From Chlamydiota bacterium (lineage in GTDB: Bacteria; Chlamydiota; Chlamydiia; Chlamydiales; JACKPQ01): a stretch of DNA of 64,000 nucleotides. The notes beneath the pieces are model-generated. The model was not told where the DNA came from, searched no databases, and worked only from the letters and a program-made list of their open reading frames with translations. The translations under genes were made by a program, and so were the position numbers. The stretch covers positions 22,983-86,982 of the forward strand of contig JAJFLZ010000020.1 in assembly GCA_021772435.1 (NCBI GenBank). Direction: 5' to 3'. Below are positions 34,029-36,162 of this stretch, in pieces (within the stretch, counting starts at the first letter, position 1; each line of letters starts with the position of its first letter).

Positions 34029-34930
34029 GCGTGCGCGATCTAATCACTCTTGGCACATCCTCACAGCAGCCCACACGCCGCCGCAACCACGGCGCCTATC
34101 TGCTCCGCTGGAACGACAAAGGGTTCCTTTTCGATCCAGGTGAGGGCACTCAGCGTCAATTCATTCATGCAGACATCGCCCCGCCGACTGTCACCCATAT
34201 GCTCATCTCCCACTTTCACGGCGACCACTGCCTCGGCGCCGGCTCCATGCTCATGCGTCTTAATCTCGACAAAGTCACCCATCCCATCCACTGCTTCTAT
34301 CCAGCTACCGGTAAAAAATACTTCCAGCGCCTGCGCTACGGCACCATGTACCACGAAAACATCCACGTCATCGAGCATCCCATCTTGCACGGCGGCATCG
34401 TCTATCAAGATGAGGGTTTTACCATCGAGGCTGACTTCCTCGAGCACGGCGTCGACAACCTCGGTTATCGCATCACAGAAGACGATCAAGTCAAATTCGA
34501 TGCAGATAAGCTCAAAAACCACGGCATCCGGGGTCCGCTTGTCAAACAGCTGCAACAAGATGGCTCCATTACACTAGATGGACAAACGATTAAATTAGAA
34601 GATGTCAGTTGGGTTCGCCGAGGTGATAGCTTTGCCTACGTAATCGACACGCGTCCTTGCAAAAACGCGATCAAACTTGCTAAAGACGCCAAAATGCTCC
34701 TGTGCGAAAGCACCTATCTCAGTGAGCACGCAGAGCTCGCTCGCAATTACCGTCACCTCACAGCAACCGAGGCTGCGCAAATAGCCAAAGATGCTAAAGC
34801 CAAGCAGCTCATACTCACGCACTTTTCAGCACGTTATTTAAAAGAAAAAGCTTTTGAAGACGAGGCCCGCAAAATTTTCCCGAATAGCTTTGCTGCTAGC
34901 GATCTGAAGCGCTTTGATTTTCCAAGATAA
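34025..34930 (+). CDS. rnz: ribonuclease Z
   Basis: Metallo-beta-lactamase motif [12 protein letters not shown]; 301 aa. Confidence 0.88.
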
Positions 34931-34973
34931 AATTCGCCTAAATTTAATACGTATGATAATGTGTCCCTTTTAT
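34834..34973 (+). repeat. 140-bp direct repeat, copy 1 (rnz 3' end plus 43 bp downstream)
   Basis: Essentially identical to 36023-36162 at an offset of 1189 bp. Confidence 0.9.
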
Positions 34974-35028
34974 GAAGGAGTAAACCTATGGTCACTTTTA
35001 ATCATTCAGCTGGACAATAGAAAATAAT

Positions 35029-36000
35029 ATGGCTAGTTTGCCCCCACCTGTTCATAACTCTCAATATGTTCAATATTATGAGCAGCCAACTAAGGCTTTA
35101 CAAAGCAAAGTGGTTTGGTTATCCGGACCTTGCAGCTGCGGAAAAACAACTCTGGGGCGAGAAATTCAGCAAATCGATCCAAAGTGGGAATATGTTGCTC
35201 AAGATGTGTTTTTTATTCGAGAAGTGGAATCCGAAATTATCAGAAGATTTCCTGATCAATGCAGAAAAATTACGAAATGTACAAACTCTGTTGGAATATT
35301 TGCAGCATTAAAGAGAATCGATGGAATTTTTTCTGAATCCGTATCAAAAGATGACTTAGAAGCAGCGAAGCTAGCATTAGCTGAAATTGAAGGAACCTTT
35401 ACAGATGATTGGATAGCTGAGTTTAAGAAAAGTACATATCGTAGGCCTAGTGAGCTTGTTCTAGAAAAAGTGCAAGAAGTCCTAGCTAGTGGAAAAAATG
35501 TTCTTCTGGATGGGTATGGAATCACTTGTGAAAAAATTCAAGCAATGAACCCGCATACACAAGTATTTCATGGGCTCGTTTATACATCTCTTGAGAAGAG
35601 CTGTCAGTACGTAGCCAGAAGAAATCAGAAAGCCCAAGATGAAAATAATTTAAACCTTCATCGTTTTTTTGGAGCGATGATTTCGAGTTTTAATGCGATG
35701 TTTGAAGTTTGCCAAGAGCAAACAGAGCATACGATTGCAGCTGTGGATTACCAGGATTTAAAAACCATATTTGATTCCATCGAACGAAAATTACCCCAAG
35801 ATGGATGCAAAGACTTTCTTTTTTGGTATGAAATGCCGCTGAGCTGTTTCCGTGCTCTTCGGGATAAATTGTTACCTAATACGAGCGATACTGGAAAGTT
35901 GTATATACAGCCCAAGCTAGAATATGACTTTGTTTTTACAGAAGAAGGAACTGCGCAAGAACGCGCGCAAAAACTTCTAGAGTGCTTGATAAAGTTATAG
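35029..36000 (+). CDS. P-loop NTPase/kinase-like orphan protein
   Basis: Walker A LSGPCSCGKTTLG near the N-terminus, later LLDGYG. No further homology recognised. Confidence 0.5.
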   Translation: MASLPPPVHNSQYVQYYEQPTKALQSKVVWLSGPCSCGKTTLGREIQQIDPKWEYVAQDVFFIREVESEIIRRFPDQCRKITKCTNSVGIFAALKRIDGIFSESVSKDDLEAAKLALAEIEGTFTDDWIAEFKKSTYRRPSELVLEKVQEVLASGKNVLLDGYGITCEKIQAMNPHTQVFHGLVYTSLEKSCQYVARRNQKAQDENNLNLHRFFGAMISSFNAMFEVCQEQTEHTIAAVDYQDLKTIFDSIERKLPQDGCKDFLFWYEMPLSCFRALRDKLLPNTSDTGKLYIQPKLEYDFVFTEEGTAQERAQKLLECLIKL

Positions 36001-36022
36001 CGAAGTAGTAGAAGCGTTTCCT

Positions 36023-36162
36023 TTATCTAAAAGAAAAAGCTTTTGAAGACGAGGCCCGCAAAATTTTCCCGAATAGCTTTGCTGCTAGCGATCTGAAGCG
36101 CTTTGATTTTCCAAGATAAAATTCGCCTAAATTTAATACGTATGATAATGTGTCCCTTTTAT
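36023..36162 (+). repeat. 140-bp direct repeat, copy 2 (contains a dead rnz 3' fragment)
   Basis: Repeats ...[33 protein letters not shown] and the downstream 43 bp. Confidence 0.9.

Follow-up and report, generated by a model that had tools for sequence, protein, structure and literature searches.

A P-loop gene between direct copies of the rnz 3' end in an environmental chlamydia suggests a recent insertion-duplication

Introduction

In Campbell-type integration, as described for Escherichia coli (PMC3240628) and Chlamydia suis (PMC10715202), a single chromosomal segment ends up as a direct repeat on both sides of an insert; the target gene remains whole, a truncated second copy of it is made, and no element-encoded recombinase is required. 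Here we analyse a locus of this layout in a 64,000-nucleotide stretch of DNA (the window; contig JAJFLZ010000020.1 of assembly GCA_021772435.1, positions 22,983 to 86,982 of the forward strand), in which a single gene for a P-loop protein stands between two copies of the end of rnz, the gene for RNase Z. The source is an environmental member of the Chlamydiae. Obligate intracellular chlamydiae have few phages, plasmids and transposons, and the route by which they gain genes is poorly understood.

An E. coli assay devised for one-sided illegitimate recombination yielded 60 recombinants, of which 56 had arisen by a single crossover of molecules that were partly degraded and had re-circularised; these single-crossover duplications measured 109-950 bp, and the truly illegitimate events led to deletions (PMC3240628). 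C. suis integrates whole vectors that have one homology arm; the target is left intact, and amplification of the integrant is frequent (PMC10715202). Uptake of DNA by Chlamydia is reported to depend on a ComEC homolog (PMC6686042). Two other kinds of system share features with the locus described here. [quoted passage not shown] Tyrosine recombinases insert islands at the 3' ends of genes for tRNA, tmRNA or proteins; foreign DNA of atypical composition is then bracketed by a direct repeat that includes the 3' end of the target, and the gene is reconstituted.

The locus resembles all three and differs from each. Its repeat of 135-140 bp lies within the 109-950 bp of the E. coli experiments (PMC3240628); unlike the experimental Campbell-type cases, it would represent a natural event in an uncultured environmental chlamydia, its insert consists of one gene with almost no extra DNA, its homology is much shorter than the effective C. 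suis arms, and its circular intermediate has to be postulated. The anchor is a gene for a housekeeping RNase Z where the displacement arrays have a polymorphic toxin, the cargo genes (kinase-like, P450) show no relationship to one another and form no toxin-immunity pairs, and only one displaced module is visible. In contrast to the tyrosine-recombinase islands, the 1-kb insert has no integrase, the rnz repeat is long and without recombinase-type structure, and no core is conserved between events. The event belongs to a known kind, homologous-recombination-mediated insertion-duplication. We propose with moderate confidence that it was a very recent insertion-duplication at a hot spot behind rnz, produced by one crossover of a re-circularised fragment that carried the rnz tail joined to the new gene.

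Results

Direct copies of the rnz tail flank a single gene

A repeat search of the window returned a 140-nt direct repeat with 139/140 matching bases (99%), 34834-34973 against 36023-36162, at a start-to-start distance of 1189 bp, as the preliminary description of this DNA had placed it. Base-by-base comparison gave a longest exact run of 135 nt (34839-34973 = 36028-36162), preceded in both copies by a single T/C mismatch that is itself preceded by TTAT. Read in the rnz frame, the mismatch would be synonymous (TTA/CTA, Leu). Because the 135-nt match is exact, the repeat is not a product of chance. The features of the locus are as follows.

34025..34930, plus strand: rnz, encoding RNase Z of the metallo-beta-lactamase fold (Pfam Lactamase_B_2, Lactamase_B and tRNase Z N-terminal); intact
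34834..34973, plus strand: repeat copy A (H), the last 97 nt of rnz and 43 nt of intergenic DNA
34974..36022, plus strand: unique segment U, 1049 bp, comprising a leader of 55 nt, a single gene and about 22-27 nt of trailer
34988..35020, plus strand: 10-codon upstream open reading frame (ORF; MVTFNHSAGQ) with a strong AAGGAG, read directly from the sequence
35029..36000, plus strand: P-loop gene, 323 aa, Walker A GPCSCGKT, member of a CPT-like P-loop kinase family
36023..36162, plus strand: repeat copy B (H), a dead rnz tail (36023-36119, stop codon 36117-36119) and the same 43-nt spacer
36180..37517, plus strand: divergent cytochrome P450 gene (Pfam p450, E=2e-25) with a GGAG ribosome-binding site 8 nt upstream

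The target gene is intact with copy A, and copy B is a truncated 97-nt tail, dead because TAG TAG precedes it in frame and no start codon is available in that frame. Downstream of copy B, the sequence TTACGTGGAGATCAATA leads into the ATG of the P450 gene, with 17 bases from the end of the copy to the P450 start. These coordinates bear out the earlier account in its details: the division of copy A into 97 nt of rnz and 43 nt beyond agrees with the extent of rnz, the 1049 bp between the copies hold one gene of 323 aa (Walker A GPCSCGKTT), and the dead tail stands directly ahead of the GGAG and ATG of P450.

The two closest genomes available for comparison are the metagenome-assembled genomes (MAGs) HK-STAS-VERR_A-4 (locus L003, RNase Z protein 91% identical) and VERR_A-5 (L005, 77%). 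The rnz part of H is ~82% identical to the rnz tails of relatives; since this divergence is at the genome-typical level, this part looks native or derived from a near-identical strain. The 43-nt spacer part is not conserved in relatives and is missing from L003 and L005. H folds no better than shuffled sequence (z = +0.72), the repeat search detected no inverted repeat within it, and promoter and terminator scans found nothing inside it. The idea that H was duplicated for a promoter that it carries was dropped on the empty promoter scan. An integron cassette was likewise rejected, as H has neither an attC-type fold nor an inverted repeat and consists of a conserved coding tail.

Junctions in short reads

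Contigs of the Logan short-read assemblies (k=31 graph) from four runs of one project (SRR15505513-18 range) were aligned to the locus, and all are 100% identical to the window. L001 (SRR15505518) corresponds to 34944-36057 and ends 30 nt into copy A and 30 nt into the exact part of copy B, break points that are expected where a k=31 graph meets a true repeat. L002 (SRR15505517; 33262-35384) extends from the upstream rhomboid gene to the P-loop gene, taking in rnz and copy A. L083 (SRR15505518) and L084 (SRR15505514) both begin at 36133, 30 nt within copy B, and continue through P450, with the gene call of P450 identical in both. All four junctions (rnz body-H, H-U, U-H and H-P450) are present in reads of several runs, and the repeat layout claimed in the preliminary description is therefore a feature recovered in independent short-read assemblies.

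The break points could also reflect an unstable structure, with an empty site (rnz-H-P450) alongside an H-U circle or a (U-H)n array, or with two merged strains, the loop having been threaded once by the assembler. L001, L083 and L084 break exactly at the repeat, and their graph is the same for an integrated and an excised form; 135-bp direct repeats would be expected to release circles at low frequency, and amplification of integrants has been seen in C. suis (PMC10715202). However, the U-H and H-U junctions are real in several runs; because all four junctions occur in reads, U is flanked by two copies of H in some molecule regardless. A 1.2-kb circle would also be without replication functions, and the deposited 98-kb contig resolves the repeat. 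We rate the probability of this explanation as small, though not so small as to be disregarded.

The bracketed P-loop gene

The guanine-plus-cytosine (GC) content of U is 38.5%, against 43.7% for the window. The 54 ORFs of the window that reach 150 aa and do not overlap were ranked by GC content. The P-loop gene (38.8%) ranks second lowest, and the lowest (33.5%) is the gene bracketed by a second pair of repeats at a secretin locus described below. The probability that two pre-specified genes occupy these two ranks is 1 in 1431. On the strength of the ranks, both bracketed genes look like imports, or at least like members of a low-GC accessory pool. P450 (40.6%) is fifth lowest and rnz (51.5%) second highest. 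U was not found at the DNA level in L003, L005 or any of 80 rnz loci, and neither the P-loop gene nor P450 was found in any of them. The view of the bracketed gene as a newcomer, taken in the preliminary description, is thus supported by its absence from the two closest genomes and by its GC rank.

The same description called the P-loop gene an orphan, which proved overstated. An exhaustive search with HMMER phmmer found relatives in 121 cluster representatives, 78 of them at E<1e-10 and nearly all full length (~320 aa), so that the protein belongs to a family of ~120 sequence clusters. Identities are 18-43%, the best non-self match in the exhaustive search being 43%. A word-indexed protein search had recovered the query only, and almost nothing with a family profile; it was the exhaustive search that revealed the family. 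Of 65 full-length relatives, 48 match Pfam CPT (chloramphenicol phosphotransferase-like; PF07931), the best E-value being 1.7e-12, and the window protein itself scores 16.3 bits, under the curated cut-off of 22. The Walker A motif GxxxxGK[ST] is present as GPCSCGKT at residues 33-40; G38 never varies among the 65 relatives, and conservation is at least 90% at both G33 and K39.

With the family alignment, AlphaFold2 returned a model with a predicted local distance difference test score (pLDDT) of 90.3 and a predicted template modelling score (pTM) of 0.85; the single sequence gave a pLDDT of 35 and an unusable model, so the prediction is usable only with the alignment. Top matches in Foldseek were dephospho-CoA kinase, UMP/CMP kinases, adenylate kinases and zeta toxin, with target-normalised template modelling (TM) scores of ~0.5-0.6; gluconate, shikimate and adenosine 5'-phosphosulfate (APS) kinases were further neighbours. 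The protein resembles CPT in its Walker A motif, in the match of most family members to PF07931 and in a predicted fold of the nucleoside monophosphate kinase, dephospho-CoA kinase and zeta-toxin type. It differs in length (~320 aa in this family versus ~175 aa in CPT, owing to large helical insertions) and in falling below the CPT cut-off. Many relatives have an N-terminal signal-like segment, which the window protein lacks; its N-terminus is non-hydrophobic and was modelled at low confidence. Since the product is predicted to be a folded member of a conserved family, U appears to encode a bona fide, foldable P-loop kinase-like protein of a fast-evolving family, predicted to be functional rather than junk.

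The 10-codon upstream ORF ends 8 nt ahead of the start codon of the P-loop gene, which has no Shine-Dalgarno sequence of its own. This arrangement of an AAGGAG-led short ORF before a start without a ribosome-binding site suggests translational coupling of the two. No terminator or sigma-70-like promoter was predicted between rnz, U and P450, and for this reason U is probably transcribed by read-through from rnz. The P450 protein is itself divergent, its best non-self homolog in a search among 5.8 billion proteins being 28% identical. P450 and the adjoining CPT-like kinase might form a pair that modifies xenobiotics or antibiotics.

The 43% homolog (P0006) is encoded at 2864-3814 of L085, a Logan contig of run SRR15505518, between a mauE-like gene and dnaB, and has 37% GC. 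This contig is chromosomal, 35 kb long and from the same sample; its tetranucleotide correlation with the window is 0.976, against 0.961 for L003, and it terminates in a 28-nt exact match to a miniature inverted-repeat transposable element (MITE) of the window. The correlation and the MITE match suggest that P0006 is probably a paralog in the same genome. No bracketing repeats were found around P-loop family members in the five contexts obtained (L085-L089), and the family was accordingly rejected as a self-spreading cassette.

The rnz to ABC-F interval across chlamydiae

Many Parachlamydiales, Simkaniaceae and Waddliaceae have an RNase Z protein 65-72% identical to that of the window, and the surroundings of the gene are conserved. 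The left flank has the order lon, cytidylyltransferase-like gene, rhomboid gene, rnz, and the right flank the order ABC-F gene, XerC/D-type recombinase gene, RNase P RNA gene. The corresponding features of the window are given below.

34931..39230, strand not applicable: variable interval between rnz and the ABC-F gene, 4.3 kb in the window, a cargo hot spot
39231..40805, minus strand: ABC-F ATPase gene (Pfam ABC_tran, ABC_tran_Xtn), the conserved right border, in synteny with rnz in ~40 loci
40874-41749, plus strand: XerC/D-type tyrosine recombinase gene, divergent from the ABC-F gene and its conserved neighbour in many chlamydiae

In ~40 chlamydial species with both flanks on one contig, the distance from rnz to the ABC-F gene ranges from 92 bp to 7.2 kb. 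Besides the P-loop gene, copy B and P450, the window interval has a small antisense ORF, genes of 235 and 131 aa, and a MITE. The 5.7-kb interval of L003 contains a MITE, a 422-aa ORF, a photolyase gene and an IS605-type TnpB gene, followed by orthologs of the 235-aa and 131-aa genes; that of L005 (~1.1 kb) has almost no cargo. A third relative, the MAG SZUA-160 (L007, rnz 71% identical), carries Fic and Schlafen/AlbA_2 genes there. Cargo across the survey is very diverse and includes photolyase, TnpB, Fic, SpoU methylase, outer-membrane proteins and nucleotide transporters. In the window, L003 and L007, lineage-specific genes lie directly behind rnz and in its direction, and the conserved genes lie farther off on the opposite strand. 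As the flanks are syntenic while interval length and cargo vary, the site immediately 3' of rnz is an old, conserved spot of gene turnover. P450 is probably older resident cargo pushed downstream. The preliminary description had suggested examining whether P450 directly follows rnz in relatives; L003 and L005 are without P450 as well, which makes this comparison uninformative.

A hot spot at a gene 3' end raises the possibility of a site-specific element remnant (an island, an integron cassette or a Xer-dependent element) that used the rnz end as its attachment site, the two copies of H being attL and attR. Islands that target gene 3' ends duplicate part of the gene tail, a gene for a XerC/D-type recombinase is found at a distance of 5 kb, and L007 has a duplicated rnz tail of its own (see below) whose left boundary is only ~20-25 nt from that of the window in homologous coordinates. 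Nevertheless, the insert contains no integrase, the Xer-type gene is a conserved housekeeping neighbour of the ABC-F gene, and H is without inverted-repeat or attC-like structure. The repeat starts 92-97 nt before the rnz stop codon in the window versus 72 nt in L007, with differing right ends; the boundaries of the window, L007 and secretin repeats differ and share no motif; and other members of the P-loop family are not bracketed by repeats. Site-specific integration at the rnz 3' end is largely refuted and, in our judgement, highly improbable. Phage_integrase matches in the cargo survey were considered as island integrases and rejected, since they represent the conserved XerC/D-type gene beside the ABC-F gene.

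The RNase P RNA gene of the right flank (42744-43248, minus strand) is 505 nt long, against 338 nt in L003 and L005. The extra ~170 nt in the P15-P17 region are a copy (~42850-43025) of the dispersed MITE-like element, which has terminal inverted repeats TAACCTGAGTTTYGGGTTT, is mostly flanked by TA and forms one long hairpin (-66.8 kcal/mol, z = -7.8). Further copies lie at 38460-38638 and 932-1023 of the window and at 10908-11081 of L003, the last directly after the rnz stop codon. This ~180-nt element is unrelated to U, near which its terminal repeats are absent. A second family of short dispersed repeats (20531-20683 versus 63464-63617, inverted, 81%; 2542-2589 versus 63571-63618, direct, 83%) occupies intergenic positions behind the ribosomal-protein operon and close to the end of the window.

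The same layout at a secretin locus and in a distant genome

The preliminary description had noted a larger [H]-[gene]-[H] arrangement at a secretin locus of the window, and this was upheld: repeats of 94% and 98% identity bracket a single 491-aa gene.

57983..59219, plus strand: copy 1 (H'), the last 815 nt of an intact secretin gene (secretin Pfam match) and a complete 146-aa gene
59220..60770, plus strand: unique segment U', 1551 bp, with one 491-aa gene (59269..60744)
60771..61765, plus strand: copy 2 (H'), a truncated secretin fragment with a 242-bp internal deletion and an intact second 146-aa gene

The repeat aligns as 57983-58422 with 60771-61210 (94%) and as 58665-59219 with 61211-61765 (98%). 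The 242 bp lost from the second secretin fragment (58423-58664, versus the joint at 61210/61211) lie between CACAA microhomologies. Because the two 146-aa genes are intact and 98% identical, against 94% for the secretin fragment with its deletion, selection on both copies is suggested. The divergence of these repeats (2-6%) compared with that of H (0-0.7%, near zero) indicates that the secretin-locus event is the older one and that the event at rnz is very recent, as judged from sequence divergence. The 491-aa gene at 59269-60744 has no Pfam match. Its product has an IQ-like stretch (IQSFMRMYQANQAFQKK) and could be a eukaryote-directed effector.

In L007, the last 72 nt of rnz together with ~310 nt downstream recur 2.3 kb farther on with 89-91% identity (7457-7840 = 9777-10170), and a second repeat pair, R, marks the other flank (9443-9772 = 11740-12180). 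The order is rnz, H, Fic gene, R, H, Schlafen/AlbA_2 (HATPase_c_4) gene, R, ABC-F gene. This order would result from the single-crossover integration of a circularised H-cargo-R allele of this locus, or from the stacking of two alleles. The dead rnz tail of L007 arose independently of that in the window. Direct repeats in the rnz loci L055, L016, L042, L060 and L082 were also inspected and set aside as intergenic or tandem, with no clear gene-tail duplication. Gene-tail duplications are rare in the remaining ~1.3 Mb of chlamydial loci examined.

The L007 arrangement, a unit of ~2.3 kb tandemly repeated with different genes in each unit, lends some plausibility to an older tandem duplication of H and its downstream DNA, the first copy of which was later overwritten by U. 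Such a history would need two events, the replacement stopping exactly at the duplication joint, yet the 135-nt repeats are 100% identical and leave no time for the second event. No second copy of P450 or of U sequence is present either. We regard an overwritten duplication as very improbable.

Discussion

The single-crossover reading accounts for the rnz locus as follows. The ancestral arrangement would have been rnz-H-P450. The incoming DNA would have consisted of H, the final ~140 bp of the rnz region, linked to a single foreign gene (U), most likely as a re-circularised fragment from a closely related strain with different cargo beside rnz. Recombination of this H with the chromosomal H by the host's homologous recombination would insert the whole circle in one crossover. 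As a result, rnz would stay intact with U directly behind it, a dead rnz tail would precede P450, and copy B would return P450 to its upstream context before the insertion. The insert U has no integrase, transposase, terminal inverted repeats or attC-like structure, the P-loop gene being its sole long ORF, and the junctions of the rnz and secretin loci have no motif in common; these absences argue for general rather than site-specific recombination. Direct repeats of 135 bp only 1 kb apart should occasionally recombine and delete U, so that its persistence points to recency or selection.

Several points weigh against this reading. The preliminary description had treated the layout as a signature of Campbell-type insertion. 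The single crossover stands as a legitimate one-step route with experimental precedent, but the layout is not diagnostic, since the final sequence is identical under several other one-step mechanisms. In C. suis, arms of at least 1-1.5 kb integrated and those of 0.5 kb failed (PMC10715202), against 135-140 bp here. No donor circle, empty-site allele or rnz-H-U-other allele was found, and plasmid searches at the protein and DNA level gave no match. The ancestral rnz-H-P450 order is reconstructed rather than observed, the relatives also being without P450. Finally, the k=31 contigs give the same graph for an integrated H-U-H, an empty site with an H-U circle and a tandem array; short-read graphs show no linkage beyond 135 nt, and hence do not place rnz-H-U and U-H-P450 on one molecule.

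The same sequence could have been produced by a one-sided-homology join between two alleles, either by homology-facilitated illegitimate recombination (HFIR) or by an unequal illegitimate crossover. A linear rnz-H-U fragment would pair within rnz and the end of U would be ligated illegitimately at the start of the recipient H; a join upstream of the homology end would duplicate H and displace the resident H-P450 downstream. A linear donor suffices for this route, with no need of a circle, and the newest cargo lies nearest rnz with older cargo farther out, in line with the displacement that has been proposed to account for rows of orphaned 3' modules at T6SS, Rhs and CDI loci (PMC5361080). A TTAT microhomology is also found beside the junction of the U end and the H start; it is split from the exact repeat by the mismatch, hence off the junction, and may be due to chance. 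In experiments, however, such joins typically delete recipient DNA, which is duplicated here, and they are orders of magnitude rarer than single crossovers of circles (PMC3240628). We hold this route to be unlikely, though deserving of attention.

Replicative template switching (microhomology-mediated break-induced replication) would likewise give H-insert-H in one step: a collapsed fork would copy U from elsewhere and re-enter the chromosome 135-140 bp behind the break, duplicating H. The tight boundaries of the cassette, with a leader of ~55 nt and a trailer of ~27 nt, are compatible with this. Yet no second copy of U that could have served as template was found in the available data, neither junction has a clear microhomology, and the 1.2-kb repeat at the secretin locus and the two-sided repeat of L007 fit homologous recombination better. 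We accordingly regard template switching as improbable. U would have arrived after P450 under the homologous, one-sided-join, template-switch and overwritten-duplication models alike.

Beyond the single locus, the tails of housekeeping genes (rnz, secretin) may, tentatively, serve as recurrent homology anchors for a recombinase-independent, RecA-type capture of single foreign genes by environmental chlamydiae. Alleles from co-resident strains would be added beside the anchor and older cargo displaced downstream. This possibility is raised by three independent examples, two in the 64-kb window and one at the rnz tail of the distant L007, together with the extreme low GC of the bracketed genes and the 92 bp-7.2 kb variation between rnz and the ABC-F gene. 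If true, it could explain gene gain by obligate intracellular bacteria with few mobile elements.

The interest of the rnz locus is moderate and comes from its setting: the lineage is obligate intracellular, the hot spot is conserved throughout the phylum, and the signature occurs twice more among the loci analysed. It also flags a large, uncharacterised family of CPT-like P-loop kinases. The locus preserves an almost unworn scar of gene gain, in which a repeat diverged by 0-0.7% brackets an intact gene at a conserved hot spot without mobile-element machinery, and this scar points to plain homologous recombination with the DNA of close relatives as the route. Should the pattern hold genome-wide, gene-tail repeats around a low-GC single gene would provide a signature for finding and dating recent acquisitions in the genomes of chlamydiae and other endosymbionts.

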